This document shows, in pieces, positions 1 through 31,145 of a stretch of 37,282 nt of DNA. This DNA comes from Psammoneis japonica (Eukaryota). The notes beneath the pieces are model-generated. The model did no database searches. It was not told where the DNA came from and worked only from the letters and a program-made list of their open reading frames with translations. Within the stretch, counting starts at the first letter, position 1. Each line of letters starts with the position of its first letter. The position numbers and the translations under genes are program-made. Where the stretch lies: positions 106,183-143,464 of the forward strand of contig QPGO01000189.1 of NCBI GenBank assembly GCA_008632985.1. The letters run 5' to 3'.

Positions 1-1584
1 CTCCACCGACGTGCATGGGAAATGGTGCCAAGAACGGCAGATGTGAATGTGCCACCCGGCACATGGGCTTTCAAACTCAAACGACTCCCGGATGGTGCAC
101 CCTTGAAGTGCAAGGCACGACATTGCGTTCGCGGCGATCCACAGAAACACGGGATCGATTTTTTCGAGACCTGCGCGCCGGCAGTGCAATGGTCGTCCAT
201 GCGCCTTCTCCTCACCGCGGTGCTCAAGGAAGGTTGGACTGCACGTCAAGTGGACTGTGCTACAGCCTTCTGCCAAGCTGACATCAAGGAGAAGGCACAT
301 GTAGAGCCTCCCAAGGGTTTCCAGCCAAAATCGGGCGCCGATCTGGCACTGAAATTATTGAAAGGCCCACACGGCCTACGCCAGTCTCCCAAGTGCTTCT
401 ATGAAAAGCTGAGGGACGGATTGCTCGAAAGAGGATGGATTCAATCCGCCATTGACCCTTGTCTTTATTTCAAAAAGGGCATGTCATGTGTGGCACATGT
501 TGATGACACCGTGTTCGCCGGTGCATCGGCCCAAGCCTTGGAAGCAGAGATTGCCAAGTTGGGCATTTCTGATGATGAGCAACGCCATGTCTTTGATCTA
601 CGTGATGAAGGCGAAGTCGGTGACTTTCTAGGTGTCAAGATTCAAAAGCTCGAAGACGGCCGATTCCTCCTGACCCAACCCGGCCTAATTGAGAAAGTTC
701 TCCGCACCGCACAGATGACCAAGTGCAACGGCGCACCCACTCCTGCCTTGCCCACTCCTGCTGGCAGCGACACCGACGGGCCACCGTTCGACAAGCCTTA
801 TGACTGCCGTTCCGTGGTCGGCATGCTGATGCATCTAGCATCCAACAGCCGCCCGGACATTGCTTGCGCGACCCATCAAGTCGCACGGTTCTCCTGCGCA
901 CCCAAGGCCTCCCACGCTGCGGCTGTCAAGCGCATTCTTCGTCACCTGAAGGACACGGCCGACAAAGGACTCATCCTAACTCCAACCGCCGATCAACGAC
1001 TCGACTGCTATGTTGATGCTGATTTCGCGGGACTCTTCAGTGTTGAAGATGGACAAGATCCCACGTCTGTCAAGTCACGTGCGGGACATGTCATTTATTG
1101 TGCAGGATGTCCGATTGTCTGGGTGTCCAAGTTACAGACCCTCGTCGCACTCTCTGCCATGGAAGCCGAGTGTGTCGCCCTCTCCCAAGCGATGCGTGAT
1201 CTCATCCCCCTTCGCGAGATCGTGAAGGAAATCAACGCGCTCGTTTTCGGACAGCCGGACAGACAGACCGACATTTCGACACATTCGAAGGCTTTCCGAC
1301 ACGCCAACGACGGAACTGAGGATTCTCCCATTGACTCCACTAACCTCCCAGCATCCGTTGTGTACGAAGATAATGCTGCCTGCCTCCAATTCGCCCGCAT
1401 GCCAAAATTGTCCCCACGAACCAAGCACATCGGCATTCCCTGCCATTGGTTTCGTACTAAAGTTGAGGCTTTGGAGATCAAAATTGAGCCTGTGAGCTCA
1501 ACTGCACAGCTTGCTGACCAGTTTGCTAAAGGATTGACTGTTGATCTATTCTGTACTGGTCGCAAAGCCCTCATGGGCTGGTGA
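1..1584 (+). mobile_element. Ty1/Copia (CoDi-like) LTR retrotransposon A, RT-RNase H end of pol; frame open but mutated, 5' part outside window
   Basis: 520-aa ORF with Copia RT motifs (WAFKLKRLPDG..KARxCVRGD, GLRQSPK, DPCLY, HVDD at 496-507 in place of YVDD, SRPDIA) and RNase H motifs (CYVDADFAG, WVSKLQ, EAE, YEDN, RTKHI, ADQFxKGL). Most conserved Tyr residues are Cys or His. Confidence 0.95.
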
Positions 1585-1611
1585 CTGATAGTTCTCCTTC
1601 TCTTTTCGGTT

Positions 1612-1815
1612 GAGAGGGAGAGTCACGAGTCAACAACCGAGTCTGATTCACGGATGACGCTTCCGGTCATGGATCTCTTCTTCCGGAAGAAATGTCCGTT
1701 GAGTCTTCTAGCGACAGCAATCGGAGTGACACACACGACCGTTGGGTCATAATGTCATCTCCAATCCCTCGTGAGATCTTCTCACAATTCGTATCTTTGG
1801 CGTGTCTCATTGTCC
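1612..1815 (+). repeat. Polypurine tract (GAGAGGGAG, 1612-1620) and probable 3' LTR of Copia A; right end approximate
   Basis: Purine run 28 bp after the pol stop; the same PPT follows Copia B. No second LTR copy in the window to fix the boundary. Confidence 0.55.
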
Positions 1816-1822
1816 CAAAACT

Positions 1823-4800
1823 GCTTCTTGTCATCCTCTGTTGCATTGTACAACCTCAAGAGAGTCCTGAACTCTCCATCCTACACAGTGTGTTGTTGTG
1901 TCCCAAGTCTGATCCAACCAATGCACCCAAGCCCTCTTCTGATGAGGACGAGCTGGTCCGGACTGGGCTTCATTGTTGTGTGGTTGAGGACCCATCTCCT
2001 CCCACCCCGTGTGTTGCACACGTCTCCTGCAAGCCTGCTCCTGCATCTCAGAGGGAGTGCCCTCCAGTTCTTGTGGTCAAGACTGTCAAACCTGAAGATG
2101 CTGATGATTTCAGTGATTGCTTCAACAGCTGTGATGATCTCTTTTGGGACAACTCAATTGTCATGTTTCCAACCAAGCCCACCCCACCATCCATTGTTCC
2201 TGCCTTGGCCCCTCTGGCTCCTCTTGATGAACATTTCTTCAATGCCAAGTGCGAGCCCAAACCTGTGTTGGTCCCACCAGTTCCCAAGCTCACCATCCAT
2301 TGCTGTGGCATCTCCTCAAGCTCCCACTCTTCTGGATCTCTGCAATGCTTTGGAAAGGTCTCCTGTGGCTCATTTGCTCCTGGGATGATCCTCCTCCACC
2401 TCCTTGCCATGTCCGTGGCCTCCAGCACCAACCTGTGTTGCATCACCATCCTCATCATTGGGGCATGATTGTGTGCATGATTGCTCTTTGGCATTTTGTC
2501 TGTGGCAGCACTGCTCCTCCCCACCCCTTTCAGTCATTGGACCACCTCTCCTCTCAAACATTCCAAGTTGTCTCTGCTCTCAAACAGCATGTTGATCTGT
2601 CACCCGGTGCATTCGTTCAGCACCATGCCATCAAGGCCAGACAACTCAAATGTGAGTTAGCATGTTCAGAGGGAAACAAGTGAGACACATCCACTCTGCC
2701 TTTTGAGCTGTCCAAGTTGATGGACAAGAGTGAAGATGACGATTTCTTTGATGCACGCACAGAGCTGCCAGTTTGTCGGGAGTGCTTCTTTGATGCTGAA
2801 ACCTTCCATGAATCCAACTGCTCAAGCCCAGACATCTTTGGCATTGGCGACTTGTGTCACACCCACTTTTTCATTGGTTGCACTGCTGCTCCAGTGATTG
2901 CTCTGGAGGACATCCCTGCCTCTCATGCTTGGCATCCTCCCCTGCACTCTGTGCCATGTCTGGTGCAACACGACTCTCACGTCTTGCCACCAATCCCCAA
3001 GCCCTCTTCCACATTGGACCTCATGGACCTCCAGGTCATTTTTGATGCTGGTGCTTCACAGGCTGGCACACCTGACACCAATGACTTTGATGGTCCTGTC
3101 AGCTGTTTTTGCACTCCACTTGCCCTTGGCAGCATGGCTGACAGAATGCAAATTGTTGGCGAGGGCACCGTCACTTGGACCTTTCAAGCCAGGGAGGGCC
3201 ACAAAATCACTGGCCAGCTCTGCGCCTGTCTCGTGCCATCCTCCAAGGTTTGGCTCCTCTCTCCACACATTGTCTCTTCCATGCAGATGGTGTCAAAGGA
3301 CATTTTTAAGGCAAGAGCAAGATTTTCAAGGTTTGCTTTGATGAGACACCAGAGCTCACACTCAAGTGTGACAAGAACGCTCCCACTTGCCAATTGGCTG
3401 TGCAACTCTTGGCTCAATCCATGCACCACAAGTCAATCTGAGTGCAATCAGCAACCCAGACAATCTAAATCTGTCCACTGGACAGAAGCTCCTCAATGAA
3501 TGGCATGCACACTTTGGGCATCTCAATTGTCCCAGGATCCAAGCTCTTCTCCAAGGCCATCCATTCGAGGCAATGAAGTTCAAGGCTGCATCCAAGTGTG
3601 ATGTTCCCAAGTGTGACACATGCAAACATGCCAAGGCTCATCACCGTTCTTCATGGTCTGCTGTCAAGAAATCCAACCCTGAGCACAATGGGGCTTTGAA
3701 AGCTGAGCATCTCCAGCCCGGCCAGTCCATCAGCATGGATCACTTCAAATCGTGTCTCAAGGGCTGCACCTGCAATTCCCATGGAAAACCCTCCTCCCAG
3801 CAGCACACTGGCAGCTGTGTCTTTGTCAACCATGCCTCTGGTTACATCCACCTTGAACATCAAGTCAGACTCTCTGCTGTTGAAGCTGTTCAAGCAAAAC
3901 AGGCATGTGAGACCATGGCAATGGGACACGGCATGCCAGCAGCACTTTCAAGGCCAATCAGTTCATCTCCCATGTCCACAACTCCCAGCAATGCATGCAC
4001 TTCTGTGGCACAAATGCTCATCATCAAAATGGAGTTGCCGAGCACTCTGTTTGGCTGGCATCCAACATGGCTTGCGCCGCGATCCTCCATGCCTCCATTC
4101 GCTGGCATGGCAGTGTCAACAGCTCTCTTTGGCCCATGGCAGCCCACTGTGCTTCCCACATCTGCAACACCACTCCCGGCTTCCACGGTCTGTGTGGTTC
4201 CACCAACATCCATGCTGGCTCTGCCGTCCCACACCACCACCTCCGTGATCTCCATGTTTGGGGGTGTCCCGTCCGCATCTTGGATCCCAAGTTGCAGGAA
4301 GGGAAGAAACTTCCCAGTTGGCAGCTGCGTTCTTGGCACATGGTGTCTTTCTTGGTCTCAGCAACATTCATGCCAGTGAGGTGCCTCTGGTCCTCAATCT
4401 CAATGCTGGCTCCATTCATTTCTCCCCAGCACCACATTGCATTTGATGATCTCTTCACCATGGCTGCTTGTTTGATTGCAAGGGAGAGTGAGCCACCAGA
4501 TCACTGGGAAGAGTTGTGGTTGGAGAACACCACCCAAATCCCTTTAGACTCGTCCAACAGGCTGTTGTTTCTTCAAGATGACTGGCTCACTCCTGCTGAA
4601 CTTGAGCAGAAACAACAACATGAGACCAGGGAATGCAGTGTCTGAGCTGCACATTAACAGCAGCCAAACTTGCCACATCCCTCCAAGAAATCACAACGAG
4701 CAGCAGATTCTTTGCCATCCACAAGTCCACCATCTTCTGTGCCACAGATGTCAACAACTGCAGTTGATCTGTCACCACCACCATCGCCACCACACCAATG

Positions 4801-5401
4801 CCGTTGCTCCAAAACCCATCATTGCCAATGCCATCAGTTGATGATCCTCCGCCTTCAGTCTCACATCCACCACCCACTGGTGGCGATGGTCCAGACATGT
4901 CAGTCCCATCCATGACTGCTCCAGCCCCACCTGTGCCCTCATCAACAACTGAAACGCTGACTGTGTGTTGCTCTCAAGGGTTGAACACGGGTGTGCGCAA
5001 AACTGCTCTTTTTGCAGACGAAGTGTGTCTGGCCTTTGTGATCCCTGACAAGGTGGGGCACAACAGGCTCAGCTTGCCCACTTGGCTGAGATCCAGGCTG
5101 ACTGTGATTCAGGTGTTTTGCACATTCAGGACCCGCGGATCTACACCGCTGAGGTCAAACACGATGTGCATGATCCCAATGTTTGCAAGGCTCCCTCGGG
5201 CAATTTTGCCAAGCAATGCATTGAAGCCATGAAGACCAAGGCATTTGCTCTTGTCCACCATAAAACGTGGCAATTTGTGAAGTGCAAGAAGTCTGTGAAT
5301 GTGCTCAAGTCCACGCGGGCATTCAAGTTGAAACGATTGCCGGATGGCACACCTCTCAACTTCAAGGTGCAATTTTGTGTCTGTGGAGATCTGCAAAAAG
5401 A
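1823..5401 (+). mobile_element. Degenerate Copia B, 5' part (gag end, protease, GAG-pre-integrase, integrase, RT start)
   Basis: Protease VIFDAGAS (about 3035-3058, expected DTGAS); WHAHFGH..CDTC zinc-binding region (3500-3630); integrase HASGYIHLEHQ and HHQNGVAE (about 3830-4040); VWGCPV.ILDPKLQEGKKLP; RT start KLKRLPDGTPLNFKVQFCVCGDLQK ending at the LINE insertion. Many frameshifts; left boundary approximate. Confidence 0.88.
5386..5401 (+). repeat. 16-bp target-site duplication of the LINE (GAGATCTGCAAAAAGA), partner at 13973-13988
   Basis: Identical 16-mer on both sides. Removing the insert restores Copia RT ...CGDLQK-EGVNCFETCSPVVQW. Confidence 0.93.
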
Positions 5402-7272
5402 TAAAATGAAACCCAAAGTCTGCATTTTAAGTGCTGCTGCGCTTCCACCCTGCAACTCTGGCAACAAGCTAACCCACACTCCCAGCACACGTTGTGCAGG
5501 AGGAGCATGTGACAATTGGCCAGCATTGGCATTGCCGTCAGGCGATGCCAAACCAAAGCAACTGGTGACAGAACACATGCCCCGCAAAGCAAGCCGTTTG
5601 GCTTCCTTGATGCCAGACTTGAACATGGGCTTTGCCACAGCCAACCAGTTTCTCAGCTGATGAGCAGAGTGTGTCAAATGTTCTTTGACCAAATCAAACA
5701 GCTGTGACCTGTCTTTAGCCAAGCAATTGTCCATCTTGGAGCAAATGGCACACAATCTTCTGCTTCAGCACCCCGTTGTTGAGCTGATTTCCCAGTTTCA
5801 GAATCATGACAGTGCACCACATCATTGTGCAAATCCCACAGTTTCCACCATTTGGACCAAACAAAGCCACCAATTGTTGCCACCCAATCAAGTCTTTTCT
5901 CTTTGTCTGACAGTGAGCAACAAATGCGTGTCTCCAACAAGTGTGACAGCTGTGCTTCATTCCATGAAGCAGAGAACCTGCCACTGAAAATGTGCCACCA
6001 CCCATCCAATGTCTTCTTGTGAGTGAAACACAGCGTGGGCACTGCAATGAACATCATCAATGCAAAGCACTTCTTCTTGGAACCAGCCATCTAAAGCACA
6101 AAGAAGCATGTCTTGAAGTGCCGCGGACATGTTGATGTCATCACACTTTTTCCGGAGACCTTGAAGAAAGGTTTGTCACCACGCTTCATTGTGAGGGCAA
6201 CGGAGGATGTGATCGCGATCCTCCAGGGGGTGTTGGCAGTGAGTGCAACAGTTGGGACAGGTGGGATTGTGCCAATGAATGATCTTGTTGGTTGGAAGAA
6301 GATCTTGAACCAATTTTACCGCGCTGACCTTGCGCCTGACATTTTGTGACATGAGCTTTGAATGGACAGACCAGTCAACAGATCAAAACACTTCCTTGGA
6401 CCACCCACATTTCTCTCTCATGTGCTGCATCAAGGCAGGAATTGAAGCCTCACATCAAAGGACCGATTGGAACTTGGAGGTTTGGGTGCTGCCCTGAACA
6501 TGCAGGGCAGCGGCGCAACTGGGCATTGGGGGAGCTGTTGAAGTGTCGCTGTTGCACACACCTTGAAATCAAGTTGCCAGCATGTCAGCCCTGAAATTCA
6601 ATTTTGCAGGAGGGGATGGTGCATTGAATGGAGCATCTTTGTCCTGGTGTTCTTTAACCCAGTGCATGGACATGGAAGTGCCAGACTGTTGTGCAAATTC
6701 CTTTTCGTGCACCTGGTTCAATGACACAAAAAAAATCATGGAGAACATCCCAGTCGGGAGCCAAAGTGTCAGAAATGTGGTGACGGTGTCAACAATTGCG
6801 TTCTTTGTCCATCTCCTTGTTGTTGTCCAGGCACGGAGGCAAGGCCTTGAAGTTCTCAATGTTGTGCACCAGGGAAGAGTTGTCACAATGGCAGCCAATG
6901 CCCTTTTGAAAGGTGCGGTTGCAAAATTCCATCACGCGAAGAATGAATTGCACCACAGACAGAAAACCACAGGCTTCAGCACGACATGATGAAGGCCAAA
7001 AACAAACATCAGACCAGCACAGTCCACCAGATGAACACCATTGATCACCAACGTCCAGCAAAAGTGCCGTTAAAGTGTGCGATGGAGCCATTGCTCCCAA
7101 CGGTCACCCAACACTGAGACATTGATTCCGCCAGTTCAAACACAGACAAGTGCATGGTCAGATTGCAGAACAAAGAAGATTCCCATTTGGGCAGGGACTG
7201 CAACCATGCAACAAAGTCTCCAGGGATCAGAAGGTTGGAAGGAACTGAAACCGGGGAACAAGTGGACCTGAG

Positions 7273-8085
7273 ACCCGTCGCAGTCGTGACGAAGGGGTGT
7301 AATTCGGGGTGTAATTTTGGGGTGTAAAAACGCGCGTCGCGCGTTTTTACACCCCTCAAAAAAAAATACAGCCAACAATTACCCGTCTTGAGGCATGTAA
7401 TTTTTGCCTGTAATTTTTGGTAAGTGCCTGTAATTTTTCGTACGAAAACAGACTCATCATCGTCCATGACGGCAACAAACATCAGAATGTCGAACAACAA
7501 TGGCAACCAACAATCAACGACGAACTTCAACCAGTAAGAGATGCAAGAACTCGTTGATGGGGAACTATTATGATATATTTATGAAAGAAATAATGGCGAA
7601 AAACGATGAGATTGCCATCAACGGACAACAAAATGAATGCAAGTTCATGCCATTTCAGAAGAAAAACGCGTCATATGGTCGCTGAAACCTTGGCTATGGA
7701 TACAATAGTAACATATGATGTTAATCACGTTATTGTAAATGTACTAGACTTGTCAGAACAATGATTTGATATGCGTAAGGTCGCAGCGGAGCCGCCGAAC
7801 GCCATGGTGTTTTGATGCTGTCAATAGAATGTTCAGTTACGCGTACAAATAAGTTCATTAAAATTAGAGATATAGAGTTATTCCTGCTTTATTATCAACA
7901 ATTCTTGAGGAGTATATATTCAATGAATATATCATTCCTCGCAGAATTACAGGCATCCAATTTCACACTCTCGCAGTCGTGAGAAAATCGGGTGTAATTT
8001 TGGGGTGTAAATTCGCGCGATGCGCGTTTTTACACCCCCAAATTACACCCCGAATTACACCCCAATTTCCACGACTGCGACGGGT
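7273..8085. mobile_element. 813-bp non-autonomous TIR element (MITE-like) inserted in the LINE
   Basis: Termini ACCCGTCGCAGTCGTG...CACGACTGCGACGGGT; 5-bp TSD CTGAG (7268-7272 and 8086-8090); subterminal GGGGTGTAA repeats in inverted orientation. The empty site restores the LINE frame (QWCLRSTCSPVS). No transposase ORF. Confidence 0.92.
7319..7355. repeat. Perfect 18-bp-arm palindrome
   Basis: GGGGTGTAAAAACGCGCG-T-CGCGCGTTTTTACACCCC. Confidence 0.95.
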
Positions 8086-11000
8086 CTGAGACACCATTGA
8101 CCGTCGCTGGCAGTGTCAACCATGACAGGAGAAGCCAAAGAAGACAAATCTGGAACAGTCTCCAACTGACGTAAGGACTCGGCATGTCCATCCTTGACCA
8201 CACATGCATTGCAACCAAGATGAGATCAAATGCACAAGAACTCCTTGGATGGTTCGTAGCATGCCAGAGAAAGTGCACGCACATTTTGTTGACAGGAACA
8301 ACCCACTGGCCCAAAGGACATTTCAGTGCAGGAGTGACATCCTTGCATGGAAGTGCACAAGCTTGACACCATTGCTTCCAAGCCCTGGCAGACGGGGACA
8401 CTTGTTCCACAGGATCAAGAGATGAAGAACCACTCAGAAGCAAGTGCTCACCTTTCAACTTGAATGCATCCAGTTGTCTGCCATCTGGGAGAGTGACATC
8501 CAACACTGTGGGCACTCGAAGACAAAGCCTGCAGCAGTCAACCCATTGGATTTCCCATTCAGTAAATTTGCCGGATGCCATGACAACATCCACGTGGTGT
8601 GTTGATCATTGTCACGCTGGAGAGGCAATGCACTGGTGTCATCCAGATCAAAGGAAGCATTGACACATGCCAGGAATGATCAAAGGGACATGAACCATTT
8701 GGATTTGGAGTGGGGTGGTTTAGAGTGGACGTCCTTTAAAAAGCTCACTCCAGCACCCAGATGGAGTTGGACCCATGATGCTGTGATGTGGGAAAGAACT
8801 CAAGGCTGACCGTGACCGCGCCAATGTTGGAGAAACTGCAAGCACTGAGATGCACCTTGCTCAACATCTAGCAAGCAAAAGCCACCTCCTTTGAGAGCAC
8901 AAGGGCCAAACAATGCACCCCATTTGGTGCTCCAATTGCAACCACATTTGGCAAAGACAGTGCGCATTGCTTTCCACTGGATCTCCAGCAGCTCCTTGGG
9001 CAAGAAACAAGTTTTCTCGAGTGCACACGTCACAGAAGACAAGCAGCATGCAAAATGGTGAGTCCATGCTTCATGTCAATCCAAAGGGCATGACCAGAGA
9101 AAAAGGGCAATGCCATCACTCTTCTTCTTCAGTGCAGAGCATTGCATCTTCTGAGTGGCAGCGGGAGACTTGCAGTGGCCAAGAGGAGTCTTGTGGGATG
9201 AGTGGGATGACAATTGGGTGCTGGACCTTTTTGCAGTGCAATCAGTGGAGAACATCTTGGTGTTGATGTTGTCATGGAACGGGTGCAAACATGGTTCACC
9301 ATCTTCTGCAAACATCCATTCAACAGCATGAAAGGAGCACTTTGGGAGTTCAAGCTCGTGTCCCACTGCATTGAACAAATTGCACCACAATTGGTTGTCT
9401 TCTTGCATTTTCAGGGCCAAGTCTACAGCGGAAGGTTGAGGAGAAGCACAAAAATCATTGACTTGCTTGGAGGTGTCATCGACACATCCATGGATGTAAA
9501 TCTTGAGAGGCTGTTGTTGATGGGCGATTCAAAGTGCATGCCATGTGCCATTTTGTCAAATGGCCAAAACAAACTGTTGCGTGTTTGGTTCCAACAAAAG
9601 GGGGAATTGCCACCACCTTGTCCTGTGCCACAAATGGGAAAGTCAATGCAGTGAGAATGCAATGTCTCCAAAAGGCCAAGGACCATTTTCAACCAATGTC
9701 TGGTGCACCTTCCAAGGTTGCATTTGTGGACTGAGTGATCTCTTTGTGCATGCCGTTGCTTCTTCTCTCCAAAGCCGTTAGTGCCGGAATGTTGTGATTG
9801 CAACAGGAGGTGCAATCATTGTCATTGCAAACAGCGGTCTTCCAAGACACTCTGCTGATCTCCAACATGAGTTCTTCTGAGCACACGAGGGAGTTGGCAT
9901 TCAAGAATGGTCTGGTTCCATAAATGCTGGGATTGCACAAATGCTTGTGTTCCTCATTCTGAGCAAGAGAACTCCACTTCATGCTGGAGACAAGCTGAAA
10001 ATTGGCTTGTTAAACATGAATGACTCTGAGGCGGTGAATCTTGTTGTTGCCGGGCTCTTTGAAGATCATGGCATTGATGACATCTTTCCATCGGTCACAC
10101 AAATGTCCCCATCATAAAGCGCAGTTCAGCAAGTTGAGGCAAATTTGAGTCAAAGACTGCTGCATCACTTGATCCAGCAACACACGTTCCGGGGCAGGCT
10201 TGCCGTCAGCTGTTTGAGAGTGCGAGTGAGCATGAGGGGCGTGCATTGCTTTCCAATGCCCCAGGTGAAGGCCTGAATGAATGGACATTGATGTTGACTC
10301 TTTCCAAGGTTTGATCTTTCCTTCAAGGTCTTGAGTGGCAAGAAAGGAAGAGACTGAGACTGGAGACCTGCATTGCAAATGTTCAACAAACCAAGATGTT
10401 GCCTCATTGAGAGAAAATGTGTTGCATTCTCCATCCAAGATGAGATCCAACACAACAGTGTCTCCCGTGTGACCCAGATCAACAGACAAGGGGGGAACAG
10501 CAGGTGGAGCACCACGGGCCTGTCCAAAGTGTTTCTGGTTGCGTGATCGAAGAGCCACTGCCAACTCTTCTGGTGCATCAACAGTGGCCCAGTCTGTGCA
10601 TTCCTTTGGGTGAACAGCGGGGTTTCAAGGGACCTGAACACTGTTGATGCCGGTGTCGCATTGAGCTTTACATGAGTTGATCTTTCAAAACAACTTGATG
10701 GTCTCCACTGCTTTGCGGATGTTTTGTGGGATGGCAGCAGCCTTCTTCCTGGATGCCTTCATTCCCTCGAGATCCAACTGTGCAATCTCATTGGCAATCT
10801 CATTTTCCTGATGCACGACACTCTCAGCTGCAACCTGTTTGCACTCCGATTGTGCTTTGCACAGAGCCTGTTGACATTCCTGAAAGGTGGATGGAATGCT
10901 GAATGTCCCGGTGAGGTGAGAATGGATTTGTTGAATTTGGGCCACATGATCCAGATGGGTGCGCATCATCAACAGGATGCAAGTGAGGATGTGCACACGA

Positions 11001-13988
11001 CAACGCAAATCAGTCAACTTGACAGACCACTCCAGTTCTTGATGAAGGTGACACTCCTTTGCTGCAGCCAAGGAGAATTGCGGCAAGTCACGATCCAATC
11101 TTTTGGCCAGTTTGTGATCCGGTGTGTCAGCACCCACGTCTCAACTCTCCCGCATGGGACCGATGGATTGCAGGCAGTCTGCGACCTGTGCTTTTGAGGA
11201 TGCCTGCAAATCTCAAAAAGCTGCTTTGGGCAGATCAGCTGTGGGGTTGCTGAAAAGGGCAATGGTGTCAAGATTGACACAACAGGTGCAGTGATCCAAA
11301 GCAACACGGTGGCCAAAGGCTTCACATCTGCCCAAATGCACTGCAGCCAAGTCCCCTGGAGCAGTGAGAATGCAGTCCAACTGCCAAGATCCTCTTGCAC
11401 ATGTGGAAAAATCTGTGTCACCTGAGAGAGAGAACATCACATCAGAGAGATTGAGGTGTTGGGTGAGAGCAGAGAAGGAGTCCGTGTCCAGTGCAAAATC
11501 TGTGTTGATGTCTCCAAACAAGATCTCTTCACGTCCGGGTCCGCAAGGAAGTCTTGCAACAAACAAGACAAATCAGAGAAAAAGGCCTTCCTGGGATCAA
11601 GTGTCTGATGGCCTTGTTGTTGCAGCAGGTGGAGCTGTTGAGCACAAGCTGCAGTCTTCCCAGGCTGCAACTGATGTTTGGCACAAACCTGTGACAAGAG
11701 ACAAACATCACTTGATGTCCATTCCTGCCATCAAATGTCTGTGTGGACCAACGGCCTAAAGGATCGGAGTCTTGAGATTGACAATGAGCTGACACCAAGC
11801 TGCACAACAGCAGCGCAGCACCACCTGGTTTACGCTGGGTGGAGAATGGAGTTGAGCTGGAAGAGAAGGCACCTTGACCATGAAGAAGAGAGGTGGCAAC
11901 CGTCAAACGGCAGACCAAAAGAGCTGAATGCTGAGCAGCATCCAAGAAAACTTCAGATGCTCCTGCTGCATCTGCCTGAATTTCATTTGCAATCTGGCAG
12001 CAACTGGCAATGTCACCTCCACGTTTGTCAAACTTGCAACTGCTGGCATTGACTGCGTGCAAACAGGTGTGGTGCAGTGACTTGGGCAACAAGGGATCTC
12101 CAACAGGCTTGTTGGTTTTCAGTCAAGAGAAACCAATGTGTCGTTCAGTGGGAGGCTGGTGTTGGCACTCCAATCCGGCGTTTCCATTTGATTGTGAAGT
12201 TTTTGGGTGGAGCTCTGTGTGGGCAGACTGGACTTGAGAAGGTGGACAATTTGATTCATCTCTCTTGCATGCTCGTCATTTGGTGGGAGCACTGAGACTG
12301 CAAGGCAGCCACATCTTGGGCACGTTGTTTCGAAAATTTGGAGTCAAGCGCTTCCATGTCCTGGGAATGCTGCTGACGAAGCTCTTCCAAGGCCTTGTCA
12401 TTCTTCTCTTGCATTTTAGACAAAGTTTGTTGAACTTCAGCCATCTGAGTCAAGGTGAGGGAAGAACTGAATGCAGACTGGGCTTCCTGGGTGCAAGTGT
12501 GTTGGGGAGGAGCATGCAGGACAGTCCTGCACAACCAAATGTTGGAGGCAAGAATGACGGAAGCTGAGCAACACCATGAGGAGGAACTAGAGAGCCTTGA
12601 CCAGTGCAGCAACCAAGACTGCCTTGACCTTCATAACCTCTGCCAGGGTGAGATGACGGCCAAGGAGGACGGTGAGCACCTGAAGCCTGAGCATCAGTCA
12701 AAGGAGAGATGTCCAAAAAGGTCAGTGACTCAAGACTGTGGATGCCAGCCAACATGATGGATTTGCTCGTGTCCGACTGTTCGTCTGGGACACCAGAAAC
12801 CTGAGGACAGTCAGGGAAGGGTGACGGATGAGATTCGTCTGGGAGATCTGGAATTAAATTCATGATGCAGGTGGAGACAGCAGCCCTTACATTCCTAAAA
12901 TCCATGTGATTGACAAGGATGTTGCAACGTCCTTCGGTGGCATTGGCGGCAGGAAAAATTGCAGTCACACCTTTCAAAGCCTCAAGGTTGTTCTCCAAGA
13001 AAAACATCATGTCAGGGGAAGCATGCAACAGCGGGACAGCATGGGTGTTGTCATTGCGATGAGCTTGGATTTTAACGGCATTGTGGAAAACAAGGGGAGA
13101 CAAACAACAAGTCTTTGCCATGACGACATGAGACGGGAGCTTGTTGGATGTGCACAGCAAGGCTTTCCCAGCAGTGCAACAGTTGTCCTTGACAACTTCA
13201 ACAGCAAAGGTTGCTGTGTGAAGGGGAGCGGCGATGTTGTTGTTGTCAGCACAAATGGAAACAGGTGCCAAATGGAGCTTCAGCATCTCAGACTTGAATT
13301 CACCCAGATTGCTTGGAAACAATTTCGCAGCTTCATCAACCGGAGCATGCTCAGTTGCAGCTGCAATGCAACATGCAGGAGTGGCCATGTCAACAACAGA
13401 TTCATTCCAGTGGTTGCATTTCATGCCCATGTCATTCAGATCCAGGACACTCTGAATGTGCGGGTGAGAGCAAAGTTCAAGTAAAGAGATTTTTGTGAGA
13501 ATGTGGTGGCACAAGCGATGAGCAACCAGACGTTTCTCACCACTGCAAGCAGCAGAAATTGCAAAGTGTCATTCATGTTGCAAGGACGGTGCCCACTCTG
13601 CCACATTGACATTGGTGATTTGATCATTGTGGTTGTCAAGAATCTTCATGTCCTTGTGGCACGTGAACAAAACTTGTTGAAGAACTTGGAGATGGGCAGC
13701 AACAAGGGACACGGGCTTGCATGAAGCCTCAGGGCCACGAGTGTCAAAACAAAGAGTGATCTCTTCAAACTGTTGCTCTTTTGGCTTGGAAGAAGTCTTG
13801 GGAGAGGCATTGTCAACAGCAACATTGTCTGCCATGTTGGCATCATTGACAGGAGGAGAGGTGTGGCTGCCATCAGCGGCGGAAGAAGACGCCATGGTGG
13901 TTGGCTGTTCTACGGAGATCCTGGTGTTGAAAACACGCAGGTGACTTCAATGCCAATGTTCACAGAAATGCAGAGATCTGCAAAAAGA

Positions 13989-15388
13989 GGGAGTCAACTG
14001 CTTTGAGACCTGCTCTCCAGTGGTCCAATGGTTGACTGTCCATCTTGTGTTGAGCACTGTCATGCAAGAGGGATGGACCACCCGTCAGGTCAACTGCGCC
14101 AATGCTTTTCTTGTGCAGGCCAAGATGATGGAAGATGTTTGCATCAAACCACCCAAGTGTTTTGCTCCCAGTTTGGGATCCAATGTTGTTTTGAAGCTTC
14201 TTGAGAGTCTCTGCAGACTTGAGCAAGCCCCCAAGTGCTTCTTTGACAAGCTGCATGAAGGATTCTTAGAACAAGGGTGGGCACAATCACAAGTTGACCC
14301 TTGCCTGTTTTTCAAGGATGGAATGATTTGTGTGGTCTGTGTTGATGATGCCATTCTTGCCAGAAAGGATGGAGCCACCCCAGAAAGTGAGATCAAGGCT
14401 CCAGGCATCCAAGATGATGAACAATGCCATGCATTCAAGTTGCAAAACAAGGGAGAAGTTGGTGGTGACTTTCTCGGCATCAAGATTTGCAAGACGGGTC
14501 CCAAGGAATTTCTCCTTGCTCAGCCTGGACTTGTTGACAAAGTCCTCAAGGCAGCTGGTGTGGAAGACAGCCACTCTTCCCCTGCTTCAAGTGCTGCCTC
14601 TCCATGTCATGCGGACAAAGAGGGAGCCAAATTTGACAAGAACTGGGGCTGCCGTTCCATCATCGGCATGTTGATGCGTTTGTCCTCCAACTCCCGACCT
14701 GACATCTGCTGCACCATGCATCAGGCCACCTGCTTCTCCCATGCTCCCAAGCACATTTGCAAGGCACTGAGGACAAGGGACTCCACCCATGCCCCCTGGC
14801 AACAATGAACATGTCGATTGTTTCATTGACGCCAACTTGCTGGCCTCTGTGGACACGAAGACTCCCAAGACCCGGTTGGCATCAAGTCTCACACCGGGTG
14901 TGTCATCTTGCATGTGATTGTCCTGTTTCATGGGTTTCTAAGCTGCAGAGGCAAACTGCACTCTCTCCACTGTGGAGGCCAAGCACCTTGCTCTGTTGGT
15001 GGCAATGCATGACCTGATTCCAATTCGTGAAATTTTGAAGGAATTCAAGCGTCATGTTTTTGGACTCAAGGACTGCAAGACCCCCACCACTGCCAAGTCC
15101 AAGGCCTTTTCAGATGTGAAGGATGGCACGATCCCCTCTTTGGCAGTTTACAAGATGATCAGGCATGCCTCAAGTTTGCAAAAATGGCTGAGTTGTCTCC
15201 ACGCACCAAGCACATTGGCATTCCCTGTCATTGGTTCCGTGCCAAGGTCAAGGCTCTTGAGATCCAGATTGAGCCTGTGGGAACTGATTCCCAGCCAGCT
15301 GATCAACTTGCAAAGGGACTTGTTGCTGACAAGTTTGAATCTGGTTGGTTGAGTCTCTCAGGCTTGCAGCTCTGCGGTTGAGAGGGAG
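13989..15388 (+). mobile_element. Degenerate Copia B, 3' part (RT-RNase H, PPT)
   Basis: VVQW, EQAPK, DPCLF, CVDD (14338-14349), SRPDI, WVSKLQ, RTKHIGIPCHWFR, ADQLAKGL; PPT GAGAGGGAG at about 15380-15388. Confidence 0.92.
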
Positions 15389-15555
15389 AGTTGACATCTG
15401 TCATTCCACCTGTCAACTGCATGCAATCGCACGCTCCAATTTCAAATTCTGACACCAAAATCTCTGATCAATGTTGCAGTCATGATTTTCAGTCAATGGC
15501 TTTTGAAACACCAACAGCTGCCAGCACACAACCTGGAGCATCAGCTCTTTTGACA
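15389..15555 (+). repeat. Probable 3' LTR of Copia B (second copy about 24903-25070); end uncertain
   Basis: Directly follows the PPT; a candidate ...TTGACA end at 15555. No 5' LTR recognised. Confidence 0.4.
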
Positions 15556-15582
15556 TTCACAGTCATGCATTGGCGCAACAAG

Positions 15583-15805
15583 TCGGGGGACGTCTTTGGA
15601 AGTGAGATCATCAAAAAAGTCTGTGCACCAGTGCATTTGGGGTGCAAAAATTCCCAGACACTCGAAATTTGATGCCGATGATGATGGCAAAAGATGGCTC
15701 CCAGGGGCTTCTATTTTGCAGACTGCAATGCATTCAACACCTTTTGTTGACACCTTCATGACTGTTGCAAGCAATGATGAAAAAATCTTGCTGAGAATCG
15801 GGGTG
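15583..15805 (-). repeat. About 220-bp repeat, inverted and hypermutated copy of the sequence upstream of the CRN-like genes; other copies 18853-18978 (+), 25097-25323 (-), 27432-27686 (+)
   Basis: Reverse complement aligns to 27432-27686 and 18853-18978; most substitutions are TA->TG/CA or CG->TG/CA. Confidence 0.88.
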
Positions 15806-16141
15806 AAATGCAATGTTTCTCTCTTCTTGGCGATGAGCAGCTGCAAGCTTGGCGACTCTTTGCCATCACTCACCACCCTCTTGTTTGCTTTTCTCTTCTC
15901 TGGAGATGTCATCATTTGCTTGTCTTTGACTCCAGGTGGGTGCATGCTGACAAGGAACCACACTTTGCACTGCTCTGATTTGACCCACAGTGGAAAACAA
16001 GAAGCAAACATCCTTTTGCTCGAGTCCACACCCAAACATGCTCTCCTGCACACAAGAACAGTGGATCAACAGATCTCCTTTGTTGTCTCATCACTTGATT
16101 GAAACTTCATCTAGATTTCCCTCATGCCACTGATTTGACTT

Positions 16142-17880
16142 GTGGAGAGCCATGGAGCCCAAGAAGAATTCAAAGAGGAACTTGTGCAATGCAGAACAGC
16201 AGCGCAAGGCTCAATTCTCAGTTCTGCAAGGCATTGGTTGCCAGCCAAGGCAACTCAGAATGGTGCCATTCCTTGCAAGATTGACCACAATGAGAATGAG
16301 TCAGGCTTTGATGTTTCTTCTTGCTCTGTCAAGTGCACCGGGTGGGCCCCTGTTGAGACATGCTCTGATGAGGTTGCCAAAGATCAAGCAGGCTCTGATG
16401 TTCTGGAGATGAAGTGCTTTGCAGTGTTCCACTTTTGTGCCAGCAATTTCTGCAACAAGGGCTCCTCCAAAGGACACAATTCTGAATGCAGAGAGCACAT
16501 TTTAGAGTTGGGCAAACACCTTGGGGCAGTCACCAAGTTCAATGAAGAGTGCATGAATGGCATTTGTGGATGCTTTGCCAGCTGCATGCAGGCTGTTGAA
16601 GATCAAGAAGCCACAGCTGCAGATCAAGATGCTGAAGATGGGCGTGACTGTGGTGATGTGTGGGGTGATGATGGCAAGCGCAAGCTTGATGAAGATGCCC
16701 AAGATCATAAAGTGGAAGATGAAGCTGAGGCCGATGCCACAGAGGAGGAAGAACTGGCCTGTGATCACAATGATGAATGTCAAGATCACTCAATGAGCGC
16801 ATCAGGCATTGCCACAATCAAGCCATGGATGTGGGTGATTTCATGGAACATGTGGAAATGACTTTGGTGATGACGACTGTGGCCCAGTGCACCACATGGC
16901 ATCCCATTGTTGTGACGGTGGTTCTGAAGTCACCATTGGGGTCTCTTCTCTGATCAACATTGCTCCAACCATTGGAGACAAAGTGTCCCTTTCAGGAACT
17001 CGTCAGAGTGCAGTTCAATGCAACCAACTCTGTTTCTTGCAACAAAGATGAGTGTGTCTCCTGTCTTGATGATAAAGAAGGGGCACGTTTGTCATCTTTG
17101 GCTGCCTTCCGTTTGCTTTGTGTTTCACTCAAATGCTTTCTGCTTGAAGAATTGAAGCACGCCTTTGCCCCTTCTTTTGTTTTGTGCAAAGCAATTCTGG
17201 CATGGTTGGGATGAAAAACAAGATGAAAACAATACAACAACAACAACAACCAGAACAACGGCTGTGATGAATCTGAAGTTTTGGAGGTTTGCCACAAGCT
17301 CTGTGAACTGAGTGCAAAGCATCAACAGAACTTTGTCTTTGACACCAGCAAATGTCAACACGCTGGTTGTCAGGTGAGCAGCAATTGTCTGCAAACTGCG
17401 TTTTGCATCATTGTTCTTGACTTTTCACCTCAATGACTTGCATCTCTTGTTCTAATTTCACAGACTGCTGTCCAGAAGGCCAACCAAGAGCAAGTCTGCA
17501 ACTGCATGACAACCTTGAAGAAAGGAAATTGCAACAAAAGGGTGAGATTGTTGTCGGTTGGAATCACCCGCTTCACATTTCTGATTGGAACAACAAACAA
17601 GCTCACTTTGATGAGTTCTCCTGTGTCAAGGAGCAGGCATCAAAAGTGACTCCCAGCCACGTTGCTGCCCTTGACTTCTTTGGAATTGGCAGCTTGGCAT
17701 TGTGTGTATGGCATGTGTCATTTGGGCTCAGCTTGCCAACAAGAACATGCCTTGGAGACCTTGCTGAGGAAAGTGCACGCTGACCCGACAAACATCACAA
17801 GGCAGACCTCCGGCATTGTCCTTGGAAAGTCTGGCAGCAGCAATGATGGCATCTCCAGCAAAAAGCCCCACTCATCCAAT
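16142..17880 (+). pseudogene. Decayed silicanin-1-like (diatom type I membrane protein) gene, copy 1
   Basis: Reverting Cys/His to Tyr gives FDVSSYSVKYTG...ETYSDEV..KRFAVFRFC..NFC...SEYxEYILEL..YL, an acidic region with RKL, a C-terminal TM segment (VAALxFFGIGSLALCV) and a tail RQTSGIVLG. This resembles silicanin-family architecture; recognised from memory, not by search. About 17090-17430 looks foreign. Confidence 0.6.
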
Positions 17881-18107
17881 GATGATCTTTTGCACTTTGA
17901 ACCATCCAAGAACAATCGAAGATGTGAGAAGTGAAGTTCTCTGAAGTTTGCATGGTGTGTGCAACAGCGGTTCCCAGTTGCAACAAGCTTCATTTCATTT
18001 TTTGTGCGCCAGCAGCAAATCTAGAAATGCACTGTTGCCAAACTGCAAAATTGCAACAGAGGCACATTAATCATGACAACAGTGAAGCAAGCACCTTTCT
18101 TCTCATG

Positions 18108-18790
18108 TCACTGCAATCCCAAGCAAGCTGAAATGACGACGTGGTCACAGGGTTCCACTTGATTGGGAAAGGGCCCTGTTGGCCACGTTGCGGTTCACAA
18201 TTTTTTTCACCTTTGTGACTCCCCAGGCTTTTGACAAGAAAATGTAATCAAGAGTTCCAACAAAGGGATCATCTTGCCTCATGTGCTTGGCAAAATCTGG
18301 TTCTCCACAAATGGACTCTGCACAAGCACTCTTGAGTGCACAGCAGGAGATCATTCCACGCCATGCTTGGGCTTGGGACAGCTTGGATCACTCTTGTCCA
18401 GCTTGCCAGTGACAAGCAGTTAGTGGGCATCAAGTCAGGCAAGAGGTTGAACCCTCCCACCAGAGTGCAATGCAAGCCGCAGGACAGATCTTGAACATGT
18501 CTTGCAGTTTGCATGAATGCGCAATGCCGCGGGTGCACAAAATGCACACACGGCAATGCAAAAGGCTTCATTGGTTCTCTTGTCCTGTGAGGTTGTGGTG
18601 TGGAGAATGTTGTGGTGATGCTGAGATATTTTCCAGTGATCAATCGGTGTTTCCCTTGATGTCCAACAACCCAAATCTTCAAGGGAATGTTGGTTGGCCC
18701 CAGAGACTGTGCAGTCCATTCCAAGCACGCGGCGCCAAGCCACGTTCTGGTTCTGCAGGCCACCCACTGACTCGCTTGTCACTTAGCCAA
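18108..18790 (-). pseudogene. Decayed CCR4/nocturnin-like endonuclease-exonuclease-phosphatase (EEP) gene, 3' part
   Basis: Motifs LVGGFN (for LxGDFN), LKSAC(Y)A..GEPDF, DPFVGTLDYIFLS, EPCDH (for PSDH); frameshifted; 5' part missing. Confidence 0.75.
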
Positions 18791-19023
18791 GAAACATTAA
18801 CGTCGATTGTTTCAAACACAGAGATTGGGGACAACGTCATAGCTGCACCCGCGGGAGCCGTCTTTTGCCATCATCGTCGGCATCAAATTTCGAGTGTCTC
18901 GGAATTATTGTACCTCAAACGCACTGGCGTACAGACTTTTTTCGACATTCTCACCGCACTTCCAAAGACGTCCCCCAAACCCAACGAAGCGCAGTGAAAT
19001 TCGAGATTTCTGCGGTCAACACC

Positions 19024-21671: not shown

Positions 21672-21869
21672 TCAAAGCAAAAGGCAGATCTCTGTGCTGG
21701 AAAACAATGAAAATGCCGCGTATCTAGCTTCTCAGTGTGGACTTTTGTTTGTCGACTACTATGACACGTCGACTCAAGAGAGAATCCCTTGAATGGAGCC
21801 AATCAGAAGAACGCTCTGGTGGCTGTGTCCCGAAGCTTGAATGTTGAACAATAATTACGCAGACTTGAT

Positions 21870-22456
21870 ATGTGTCAATAGAAAATGTCCGAGAAAGTTT
21901 GTCTGGAAACATATATCCAAATTTCTCTCCGATTGTCCGTCTCCGTTGGTTCCCGCATTGTTTACCAATGCATCAATTTTGCTGTATCGACCAAGTACGA
22001 CTTTGGAAAATTCTCGAACCGAATCAAAGCTGCCGAGATCAAGCGGATGAACAAAGACGGCGTCACCTGCATGCTCTCCGGTGCAGGCTTGTTGAATGTG
22101 TTGAACCGCCTTTATTCCCTTTTCACGAGATCGACAAGCGAGCATAACCTCGTACCCTCTCTCCACAAGCGCCTTGGACGTTTCAAACCCAATGCCCGTT
22201 TTGGAACCCGTAACGATTACCACTTTTTTGCTCGTCACGGGTACAAACGGCACTTGCCTAGGTTCCAATAGTAGGGATGGAAAGGGGCATGCAAGGTGTG
22301 CTGCCGCCGAGTAAAGAACGGCAAGCGGGGAAAAACTGTGGAGAATAACGCGTTCGAATAAAACGGCGACGCTACTGCCGTCGATGGGATCATTGTGTAA
22401 GAGATCAACAGACCGAGTAAAGCTGACGACAAGGGAAACAACCGCAACGGCGACAT
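21870..22456 (-). pseudogene. 3'-truncated short-chain dehydrogenase (retinol dehydrogenase-like)
   Basis: Signal-peptide-like start, [48 protein letters not shown], then homology stops with no YxxxK; frameshift near 22270. Confidence 0.8.
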
Positions 22457-22748
22457 GACTTCTCCATGCCCGCGGTATCTTATGACGTGTCGTGTCGGAG
22501 GGAAAAATTCAAAAAAAAAAAGAGAAATCAAAAATTTCGAAAAAATGATGGGCAGAGGAGGTTGCCCGCGCAAAAGTCATAGCCAGACTGACTCACAAAG
22601 GTGCCGAAGAGACAAGACACCGACCAGCGACCAGGTGTTGTTTGTTATTACTTCTTCTCTTTGTTGTTTGTGGAGGCCAACCCTACCAACATATCGGTGT
22701 GCAGTATCCTTATTGTCACAGTTGTACCTCATCTCATCATAGTCTACA

Positions 22749-23368
22749 ATGGTGTGCATTCGAATGGCAACGGTGGATGATTTGCTGCAAATGCAAACCA
22801 CCAATCTTTGGTGTTTGCCAGAGAATTATCAAATGAAGTACTTTTATCACTTGCTAAGTTGGCCACAATTGCTATGGGTTGCCGAAGACTTTGACGGAAA
22901 AATTGTCGGATATGTATTGGCGAAAATGGAAGAAGATGAAAAGCAACCTCGTCATGGTGAGTTTTGAAGAAGTGTGCGAATCAAACGATGCGGTTGGTAT
23001 CTGTGCTTGCTATCATGCGCTGCTGTTTACTAAACATCTGTTTTTCAGGCCACATTACGTCTCTGTCTGTACTCCGGACTCACCGTAAACGTGGTATTGC
23101 CACTGCCTTGATGAGACGGTCTCAATTGGAAATGGAAGAAGTCTTTGAGGCAGGGTACGCGAGTCTCCATGTCCGTGAATCCAACCGTGCCGCCATTCAC
23201 CTTTACAACAAGACACTTCAATACGAAATCAATGATGTTGACAAGGGATATTATGCGGATGGAGAAGATGCGTATGATATGCGTTGTACCTTTGAGAAGA
23301 ATAAAAAACAAGACGGAGTAAAGGAGATTACCAAGGGCGTTGAAAAACAGGTGAAGGTGTCCGCCTAG
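22749..23368 (+). CDS. NAA10: N-alpha-acetyltransferase 10 (NatA catalytic subunit, ARD1); exons 22749-22956 and 23049-23368
   Basis: [87 protein letters not shown]...TTTCAG intron joins the frames. Confidence 0.95.
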
Positions 23369-23426
23369 AGATAGCATTCCCATCATTAAACTTTGTCCTT
23401 TATCTGCACAATCTATCTACACTTTT

Positions 23427-27326: not shown

Positions 27327-27724
27327 GCCACAGCTACACCCGCATGGAAGCATTGCATCATCAATGGGAGCATGACTCCACGAAGCTTCGCGCTGTGCCC
27401 CGCCATGCAACAACCATCAAAGTGTGCTCAACTGCCCCGATTCTCGGCGAGATGTTTTCATCATCACTTGTAACAGGTATGAAGGCTTCAATAAAAGGCG
27501 TTGAATACATTGTAGTCTACAAAATAGAAGCCCCCGGGAGCCGTCTTTTGCCATCATCGTCGGCATCAAATTTCGAGTGTCTCGGAATTTATACCTCAAA
27601 CGCACTGGCGTACAGACTTTTTTCGGCATTCTCACGCCACGCACTACTGTACACACACTTCCATCCTCCCTCCAAAGACGTTCCCCAAACGCAGTGAAAG
27701 TCGAGATTTCTGCGGGTCAACACC

Positions 27725-31085: not shown

Positions 31086-31145
31086 AGAGATAGTATTCCC
31101 ATCATTAAGCTTTGTCCTTTATCTGCACAATCTATCTACACTTAT

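Follow-up and report, generated by a model that had tools for sequence, protein, structure and literature searches.

Overall organization of the window

We analysed a 37,282-nucleotide stretch of the genome of the diatom Psammoneis japonica (assembly GCA_008632985.1, contig QPGO01000189.1, positions 106,183 to 143,464 of the forward strand), referred to below as the window. Its left part carries the end of a Ty1/copia retrotransposon (Copia A), followed by a second copia element (Copia B) that is divided by an 8.3-kb insert, which in turn holds a miniature inverted-repeat transposable element (MITE). Its right part carries a tandem segmental duplication, each unit of which contains an element bounded by terminal inverted repeats (TIRs) and genic DNA. 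Most of these transposable elements (TEs) have lost the dinucleotide TpA (TA) and, to different degrees, the dinucleotide CpG (CG), and here we describe the two losses and their relation to each other. The evidence is comparative and comes from this one window; it was gathered by Pfam searches, homologue alignment, self-comparison, tblastn, and dinucleotide counts, the last given as observed/expected ratios (o/e).

In genic DNA (18.8–24.5 kb and 27.5–37.3 kb), the TA o/e is 0.48–0.54 and the CG o/e is ~1.0. A dinucleotide scan delimits three affected blocks (~1900–7270, 8086–18750, and 25250–27400), in which the TA o/e is 0.04–0.06, the CG o/e is 0.21–0.34, and the CA+TG o/e is 1.65–1.8. The edges of the blocks are sharp (~1800–1900, 7270, 8086, 18750, 25250, and 27400), and the density of TA is 3.7 per kb in the affected TE blocks versus 36.3 per kb in genic DNA. 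By these counts, the process is restricted to the transposon blocks, weakening over the last few hundred bases before genes. CA and TG occur 3311 and 3250 times in the whole window, and the G+C content is 0.47–0.52 in the affected blocks versus 0.46–0.48 in genic DNA. GC-biased gene conversion was considered as a cause and rejected, because the effect is specific to TA and the AT, AA, and TT steps are not depleted in the window.

Copia A has lost most conserved tyrosine codons and kept its CpG

Copia A is read as 527 open codons from base 1, followed by a TGA at 1582–1584. It matches the Pfam family RVT_2 (E = 3e-33, residues 5–250) and aligns over all 527 residues, with 59–61% identity, to the C-terminal ends of copia polyproteins of 2100–2300 aa. 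The full-length homologues come from metagenomes and Fragilaria crotonensis and carry gag-pre-integrase and RVT_2. A preliminary description of the window, made from the sequence alone, had reported for Copia A an open frame, abundant CpG, about 23 TA in 1584 bp, and the replacement of most conserved Tyr, and our counts agree on every point. Copia A contains 23 TA (o/e 0.28) and 106 CG (o/e 0.90); the CpG-rich strings singled out in that description lie at 123–134 and 331–340.

To define conserved positions, Copia A was aligned with 103 homologues spanning its full length, and columns with at least 80% agreement were taken as conserved. One of the 11 conserved Tyr is kept; five are replaced by His (CAT/CAC) and five by Cys (TGT/TGC). 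By comparison, 190 of the 216 remaining conserved columns are unchanged (Fisher p = 3e-8 versus Tyr). Copia A still has Arg at all 16 positions where it is conserved, encoded by CGN at 14, and the loss of conserved TAY codons (Y, pyrimidine) thus stands at 10/11 versus 0/14 for conserved CGN codons (p = 3e-6). Tyr makes up 1.14% of Copia A, compared with a mean of 3.28% in the homologues (minimum 2.31%). The catalytic YxDD motif of the reverse transcriptase (RT) is not intact and reads HVDD.

Most of the replaced residues fit a single type of change. Given their present neighbours, 23 of the 36 replaced conserved residues are explained by one TA>CA (10) or one TA>TG (13) step; the remainder comprise one CpG step, six other single steps, and six multi-step changes. 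Replacements through a TA step outside Tyr are Thr>Ala after T, Val (GTA)>Ala, Leu (CTA)>Pro, and Ile>Val after T. The two kinds of step are about equal in number, as expected if both strands are targets. Among 78 related RT–RNase H stretches from metagenomes, the TA o/e is 0.62 ± 0.15, and one stretch is as low as Copia A or lower. Eight of the 78 related environmental elements have low CpG and normal TA, the opposite of Copia A, and the two processes therefore occur apart. By these comparisons, Copia A is a dead copy, hypermutated at TpA with its CpG intact, and the TpA>CpA/TpG hypermutation is real and separate from CpG decay, as had been proposed.

The loss of TA is uneven along the element, bases 1–260 containing no TA and 22 CG. 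The intermediate state of Copia A continues past the stop codon and ends at ~1800–1900, where a high-copy piece also ends. The summed depth of matching contigs, which comes from one public DNA run and does not give clean copy numbers, is 2000–3600 over Copia A, or ~35–60 times that of single-copy contigs (~60). It is highest at 1645–1918 (8213, ~140 times single-copy), as expected of a long terminal repeat (LTR) with solo copies; only the 3′ side lies in the window.

Sequence preference and effect on reading frames

The survival of TA depends on the flanking bases. Relative to genic density, survival is 0.013–0.024 for RTAY (R, purine), 0.014–0.13 for mixed contexts, and 0.2–0.48 for YTAR, so that RTAY survives 10–30 times less often than YTAR. 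Relative to related elements, survival is 0.02 for TAT, 0.04 for TAC, 0.10 for TAG, and 0.14 for TAA. In addition, a pyrimidine follows the target A in 20 of 23 inferred events in Copia A versus 19 of 46 surviving targets (p = 3e-4), a count that is biased by the detection of events through amino acids. The contexts show that a pyrimidine is favoured 3′ of the target A. The preference for TAY accounts for the near disappearance of Tyr codons while 23 TA remain. The contrast between RTAY and YTAR, the low TA density, and the sharp block edges make the process far too strong, too local, and too dependent on context for a passive decay, in support of the view in the preliminary description that it is active.

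Neither TA>CA nor TA>TG can give rise to a stop codon, whatever the frame, and both abolish TAA and TAG. In accordance, the blocks contain 1.7 TAA and 1.0 TAG per kb of strand, versus 8.4 and 6.7 in genic DNA, and long open reading frames (ORFs) are present in all six frames of the affected blocks. That Copia A has an open frame therefore does not mark it as young or active, contrary to the use first made of the frame.

Copia B, the 8.3-kb insert, and the nested MITE

A full-length homologue placed on the window by tblastn shows that Copia B is split in two and has several frame changes. None of its 11 conserved Tyr is kept; conserved Arg is kept only partly, with many now His, Gln, or Cys. 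Copia B is thus frameshifted and has lost both TA and most CG, as previously stated (Table 1).

The insert that divides Copia B had been called a long interspersed nuclear element (LINE) with the same double loss. The loss is confirmed, but the identity is not. In the region searched (1500–19400), none of 131 ORFs of at least 70 aa has a Pfam match at E ≤ 0.001 within the insert. The 22 largest ORFs, followed up to E = 5, give weak, unrelated matches below curated cut-offs and no RT or endonuclease family. The six read-through frames of the insert have no match at E ≤ 0.1, and nothing relevant was found among solved structures or in the protein Atlas. The LINE label is unproven rather than excluded, since heavy mutation may hide domains. 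A CVDD at 9475–9492 (minus strand) could be a decayed YADD, which is a guess only. The summed contig depth is very high at 5409–5490 (5954 in the 5207–5480 bin, versus ~60 for single-copy DNA), and 20 contigs switch to unrelated sequence just before 5409, which marks the left end of the insert as the border of an abundant repeat. Such an edge would fit the 3′ end of a minus-strand LINE, without proving one.

The MITE within the insert has a TA o/e of 0.75 and a CG o/e of 1.41 and has no Pfam match. A paralogous contig lacks it (joint 7270>8116) and represents the empty site, confirming that the MITE is an insertion. The claim that the nested MITE has lost neither dinucleotide therefore holds. 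The MITE is multi-copy, with a summed contig depth of ~930–2360 versus ~60 for single-copy DNA (~15–40 times).

The two units of a tandem duplication diverged at TA and CG

Unit 1 of the duplication contains the end of Copia B, a TIR element, an ORF with a Crinkler N-terminal domain, an N gap, an SDR gene, and a truncated copy of ATG7 (ORF 23427–23987, minus strand); unit 2 contains the full ATG7 gene. At the junction, the interior of ATG7 is joined to the interior of Copia B with no N gap. The N gaps are at an equal relative place in both units (19825–20700 and 28549–29245).

The duplicated genic parts are 98.5, 95.6, and 93.4% identical, and the TE part (14990–17810 versus 24494–27325) is 88.7% identical. 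In the TE part, three TA sites are present in both units, five in unit 1 only, and 12 in unit 2 only; for CG sites, the numbers are 14, 21, and 36. TA sites differ between the units at 17 of 20 places in the TE half versus 20 of 117 in the genic parts (p = 5e-9), and CG sites at 57 of 71 versus 30 of 222 (p = 2e-25). When both copies lose a shared ancestral TA or CG independently, half of the outcomes are CA on one side and TG on the other. There are 54 such discordant sites in the TE half, compared with six for the GT/AC control and none in the genic parts. Conserved Tyr 481 is an example, its codon being CAC in the first unit and TGT in the second. Outside the TA and CG classes, the divergence is ~4.7% in the TE half, similar to that of the non-coding segment in the middle of the units. 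As an indirect measure of rate, 60–80% of the TA and CG sites were lost, versus the ~4.7% divergence elsewhere between the duplicated halves.

The TIR element provides a further comparison, since its left repeat is inside the block and its right repeat is outside (Table 1). The right-hand copies keep a GTAC that reads GCAC in the left-hand copy of unit 1 and GTGC in that of unit 2. When the repeats are polarised in this way, all nine TA sites have changed to CA or TG. A DNA element is therefore affected as well as the retroelements.

Because the units diverged at TA and CG after they parted, the process is not limited to RNA or cDNA. The two units may be a true duplication or two haplotypes placed in tandem; the conclusion of loss in place is the same in either case. 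The comparison of the units thus shows that the process acts on chromosomal DNA in place.

Segment 17811–18847 is 1037 bases long in unit 1, compared with ~200 in unit 2 (27326–27530), and has a TA o/e of 0.12 and a CG o/e of 0.38. The difference in size would reflect either an insertion into unit 1 after duplication or a deletion from unit 2. In the duplicated genic parts (20701–24496 versus 29396–32303), TA and CG sites differ at ~3–4 times the frequency of the average site, and the TA o/e of genic DNA is itself no higher than 0.48–0.54; the TA process may also run weakly across the genome as a whole. We do not claim a spread of the process into the truncated ATG7 copy, where the asymmetry is mild (9 versus 5 TA, 12 versus 9 CG).

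Table 1 Coordinates of the transposable elements and duplicated units in the window
Feature	Position	Strand	Basis or remarks
Copia A, RT–RNase H end of Ty1/copia polyprotein	1–1584	+	RVT_2 match, homologue alignment
RT catalytic motif of Copia A, now VAHVDD	490–507	+	Tyr of YVDD is CAT (codon 166, nt 496–498)
Copia A 3′ untranslated part and probable LTR	1585–1900	+	TA o/e 0.29, CG o/e 0.84; high-copy in contigs
Copia B 5′ part: gag-pre-integrase, integrase, RT start	2330–5402	+	TA o/e 0.04, CG o/e 0.26; frameshifted
8.3-kb insert dividing Copia B (‘LINE’ of the preliminary description), holds the MITE	5403–13707		Outside the MITE, TA o/e 0.06, CG o/e 0.32–0.34
MITE-like TIR element, 815 bp	7271–8085		16-bp perfect TIR; 5-bp CTGAG target duplication on both sides
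Copia B 3′ part: RT–RNase H	13708–15363	+	TA o/e 0.04, CG o/e 0.25; frameshifted
Tandem segmental duplication, unit 1 (9.5 kb)	14990–24496		Self-comparison
TIR-bounded element, unit 1	15585–18976		Left repeat in block, TA o/e 0.06; right repeat outside, TA o/e 0.33, CG o/e 1.49
Tandem segmental duplication, unit 2	24494–32303		Self-comparison
TIR-bounded element, unit 2	25098–27635		Left repeat, TA o/e 0.06; right repeat, TA o/e 0.67, CG o/e 1.25

Favoured TA sites were probably lost before CG

The repeat pair of the TIR element also bears on the order of the losses. Of its nine TA sites, six were lost alike in both units, probably before the duplication, and three were lost after it. Of its 12 CG sites, three were lost alike in both units, eight were lost after the duplication, and one is kept in all four copies. 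The share of common losses is thus 6/9 for TA and 3/12 for CG (p = 0.09).

The site counts of the two units can in addition be used to calculate back to the time of duplication. The calculation takes the loss in each unit to be evenly spread and independent of the other unit, and is rough, since the loss is in fact uneven along the segment; it gives ~40 TA (o/e ~0.23) and ~125 CG (o/e ~0.7) for the 2.8-kb TE segment. This state corresponds to the present state of Copia A. Three small, independent comparisons (Copia A, the TIR pair, and the back-calculation) therefore support, at the level of sequence, a loss of favoured TA sites ahead of CG.

Comparison with known mutational systems

The sole report of this signature that we found is a preprint on the chlorarachniophyte Bigelowiella natans (Mettrop et al. 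2026, bioRxiv 10.64898/2026.01.13.699255). In mutation-accumulation lines, A>G or T>C changes are reported to make up 230 of the 231 mutations found in an integrated giant virus and a virophage. All GC-biased mutations fall at TpA, at ~1000 times background and in some lines only, TpA-poor coding sequences are enriched in RT and DDE domains, and the authors propose an ADAT2-like adenine deaminase (10.64898/2026.01.13.699255). The two cases are alike in almost exclusive A>G/T>C changes at TpA on both strands, in restriction to foreign or mobile DNA, in depletion of TpA with gain of CpA and TpG, and in enrichment of RT and DDE domains. They differ in lineage (a rhizarian alga versus a stramenopile), in target (mainly single-copy giant-virus and virophage inserts versus retrotransposons and a TIR element), in the kind of evidence (de novo mutations in accumulation lines as proof versus comparison only), and in depth (Rho of 0.45 in the viral region versus the far deeper o/e of 0.04–0.06 here). 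The terms ‘trinucleotide’, ‘flanking’, ‘CpG’, ‘diatom’, and ‘stramenopile’ do not occur in the preprint text, so that this text covers neither the TAY preference nor the relation to CpG decay nor the edge effects. Our search of the literature on diatoms found no report of TpA loss or of A-to-G hypermutation. Relative to the preprint, the diatom lineage, the transposon targets, the flank preference, and the relation to CpG decay would be new here.

Fungal repeat-induced point mutation (RIP) changes C to T mainly at CpA and makes TpA and stop codons. The process in the window resembles RIP in that repeats and mobile elements are densely mutated where they lie, by a single kind of transition that is tied to one dinucleotide and hits both strands, as a form of genome defence. 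It differs from RIP in that the direction is reversed (TpA>CpA/TpG), stops are removed, and G+C is not lowered; the TpA o/e in the blocks is at odds with a CpA>TpA direction. As for a dependence on duplication, both TE halves of the tandem duplication are mutated, whereas the multi-copy MITE and the duplicated genic halves are not.

Deamination of 5-methylcytosine resembles the second of the two losses, since the older elements lost 66–79% of the expected CpG to TpG and CpA and most CG sites differ between the duplicated TE halves (57 of 71). However, it leaves the loss of TA unexplained and is absent from Copia A, in which none of the 14 conserved CGN codons was lost. Hypermutation by APOBEC or ADAR enzymes in animals acts on single-stranded cDNA or RNA and leaves a strand bias. 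It has in common with the process here that a deaminase-type cluster of one transition is found in mobile elements and is taken as innate defence. In contrast, both strands are affected equally in the window, and duplicated DNA has kept mutating in place.

Proposed mechanism

The reading that we favour, and consider fairly probable, is that Copia A is a dead Ty1/copia copy struck by a process aimed at TpA, in which favoured TA sites are lost early and CpG decays later. A:T>G:C transitions arise at TpA on both strands, and favoured TA sites would be lost early, perhaps in bursts soon after insertion. Slow deamination of 5-methylcytosine within the silenced block would then remove CpG, and progress through the stages would also be set by the depth within that block. 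Copia A represents the first stage, with TAY gone and CpG still intact, whereas the end stage is seen in Copia B and the 8.3-kb insert (TA at 4–6% and CpG at 21–34% of expectation, CA+TG at 1.7–1.8 times expectation); the nested MITE is untouched.

Adenine deamination appears the most likely chemistry. Adenine at 5′-TA(Y) would be deaminated to hypoxanthine in DNA and read as G at the next replication. The enzyme would be a deaminase, TadA/ADAT2-like or of another kind, that is brought to DNA which is silenced or foreign. The outcome would be a defence, in which Tyr codons, including that of the RT motif YVDD, and TA-rich signals are removed while frames are left open. We further suggest, tentatively and with a good deal less assurance, that diatoms have a RIP-like but chemically opposite defence, in which a double-stranded DNA adenine deaminase acts at 5′-TA(Y) on newly silenced TEs before CpG decays, and that this defence is shared with Rhizaria (Bigelowiella) and old within the group of stramenopiles, alveolates, and Rhizaria.

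Several points weigh against the favoured reading. The chemistry is argued by analogy with the proposal made for B. natans. The baseline for the context preference is genic DNA or foreign relatives rather than the true ancestors. The order of TA before CG rests on small numbers (11 Tyr versus 14 Arg codons; 9 TA versus 12 CG sites). After the duplication, the loss per site was similar for the two dinucleotides, with 12/15 TA versus 36/50 CG lost from unit 1 and 5/8 TA versus 21/35 CG lost from unit 2, a ratio of loss rates of ~1.1–1.3. The proposal of the preliminary description that TA is converted faster than CG therefore holds for the favoured TAY sites, as the three small comparisons indicate, but not for all TA. 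In addition, copies of the same age differ. Deep in the block, 14990–15730 of unit 1 has 2 TA and 13 CG, and the corresponding 24494–25249 of unit 2, which adjoins genic DNA, has 13 TA and 30 CG. The stage is thus not readable as age, and the order of TA before CG is confounded by position in the block. The idea that the nested elements form a time series accordingly stands in part: there are signs that TA is lost first, but the nesting is no pure clock. Furthermore, 23 TA survive in Copia A, none of them in the first 260 bases, and this unevenness is unexplained. Lastly, the MITE lies within an affected block and is rich in favoured sites (10 ATAT, 3 ATAC, and 3 GTAC), yet it is untouched. 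Either the MITE inserted very recently, or the process does not work by region alone.

Alternative explanations

The difference between copies of the same age is also what would be expected if the stage reflected position instead of time, being set by depth in silenced chromatin and by methylation. Copia A and the edge of unit 2 would then be weakly methylated or unmethylated, and the succession of TA and CG loss would be no kinetic rule. The TIR element agrees with this explanation, in that the gene-side repeat keeps TA and CG and the partner inside the block lost both, as do the similar loss rates of TA and CG after the duplication. However, the change of state at ~1800–1900 coincides with the likely end of the Copia A LTR and the edges of the MITE are exact element edges, which fits insertion age; moreover, in the TIR pair the TA losses are mostly common to both units and the CG losses mostly are not. 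We therefore regard position as the sole determinant as possible but doubtful; position and time may act together. A different question is which base is modified. TpA is self-complementary, so that T>C on one strand is A>G on the other in all data here, and oxidation of thymine at TpA to 5-hydroxymethyluracil or a base-J-like product could give T>C on either strand through mispairing or error-prone repair. Dinoflagellates replace much of their thymine by 5-hydroxymethyluracil, with a preference that includes TpA. On the other side, the flank preference is described most simply as a pyrimidine 3′ of adenine, and TAY resembles the U-A-C of the tRNA loop on which TadA/ADAT2 enzymes act. The authors of the B. 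natans preprint also favour adenine deamination and name ADAT2 as the candidate (10.64898/2026.01.13.699255). The present data do not discriminate between thymine and adenine as the modified base, and with these points in view we consider thymine modification unlikely.

RNA or cDNA of the retrotransposon could have been edited by an ADAR- or ADAT-like enzyme before integration, so that Copia A arrived already mutated. ADAR-type editing and fungal ADAT-type editing do prefer a U 5′ of the edited A. On the 40 of 823 contig variant places covered, Copia A taken alone could have mutated before its insertion, which is a further point against the reading that we favour. For the block as a whole, sequence comparison largely refutes this explanation: the two strands are equal (13 TA>TG and 10 TA>CA; Tyr to 5 Cys and 5 His), the duplicated halves diverged by the same changes after the duplication, and the TIR element, a DNA element, is affected. 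We accordingly hold it to be very unlikely. Still less probable is that the low TA content is an inherited composition of the family, due to codon usage or selection, with the element intact behind its open frame. Genic DNA is itself TA-poor, and the family is abundant in the contigs (summed depth 2000–3600). Against this, TA is higher in 77 of 78 related elements, and 10 of 11 Tyr that are conserved in 103 homologues, including that of the catalytic YVDD, are replaced by the one-step products of TA>CA or TA>TG. Some long-read base callers miscall modified motifs systematically, and a modified base in TE DNA misread in this manner could make TA and CG appear as CA or TG. The one matching DNA run (0.74 of sampled words, besides two further runs of the same sample) bears on this point; no RNA run was among the matches listed. 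Its contigs (depth ~50–60) agree with the block, with 1–7 differences per 0.5–1.7 kb, although this run may be the source data of the assembly. Variants of the contigs relative to the window comprise 173 A>G, 151 T>C, 142 C>T, and 144 G>A, with 18–33 of each type of transversion. A misread base would not produce the 54 CA/TG-discordant sites of the duplication, at each of which a single ancestral dinucleotide is read in two ways, and we give an artefact almost no credence.

Occurrence elsewhere and implications

The signature is found in a few other sequences. Among 80 related metagenome loci, one (L049:293–1786, on a 1.8-kb contig) has a TA o/e of 0.04 and a CG o/e of 0.2. Among 149 representative homologues, three keep none of the 11 conserved Tyr and mostly have Cys or His instead. 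One of the three, a protein from an ENA metagenome (P0376), has an open frame of 2061 aa with a single Tyr (0.05%). Databases evidently hold nearly Tyr-free ‘proteins’, P0376 being an example, that are dead, hypermutated transposons. In such genomes, an open frame is no sign of an active element, and the process inflates transposon ages that are based on divergence.

If the favoured reading is true, TpA-directed hypermutation would be a defence in a second large algal lineage, aimed at ordinary transposons, and it would become testable which non-fungal eukaryotes mutate their own repeats on purpose and by which enzyme. To our knowledge, no natural deaminase is known that acts on adenine in double-stranded DNA; the adenine base editors were all evolved from TadA. 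A TA(Y)-specific deaminase of double-stranded DNA would for this reason matter for biotechnology as well.

Neighbouring genes

ATG7 (31146–32975, minus strand) is a single open frame. Its closest named relatives are from the raphid pennate diatoms Seminavis, Mayamaea, Cylindrotheca, and Nitzschia (55–59% identity), and its best unnamed match has 66% identity. The ORF with the Crinkler effector N-terminal domain (PF20147, E = 1.5e-6; 18787–19314, plus strand) directly adjoins the transposon block. The Crinkler region is common to both units of the duplication, 18848–19824, which starts just after the ORF start, aligning with 27531–28519. Further to the right, DUF6824 ORFs are located at 34249–34710 (plus strand) and 36572–37108 (minus strand). 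A 277-bp segment (35282–35558) is 77% identical to 34355–34627 and, together with the DUF6824 ORFs, resembles a small local gene family.

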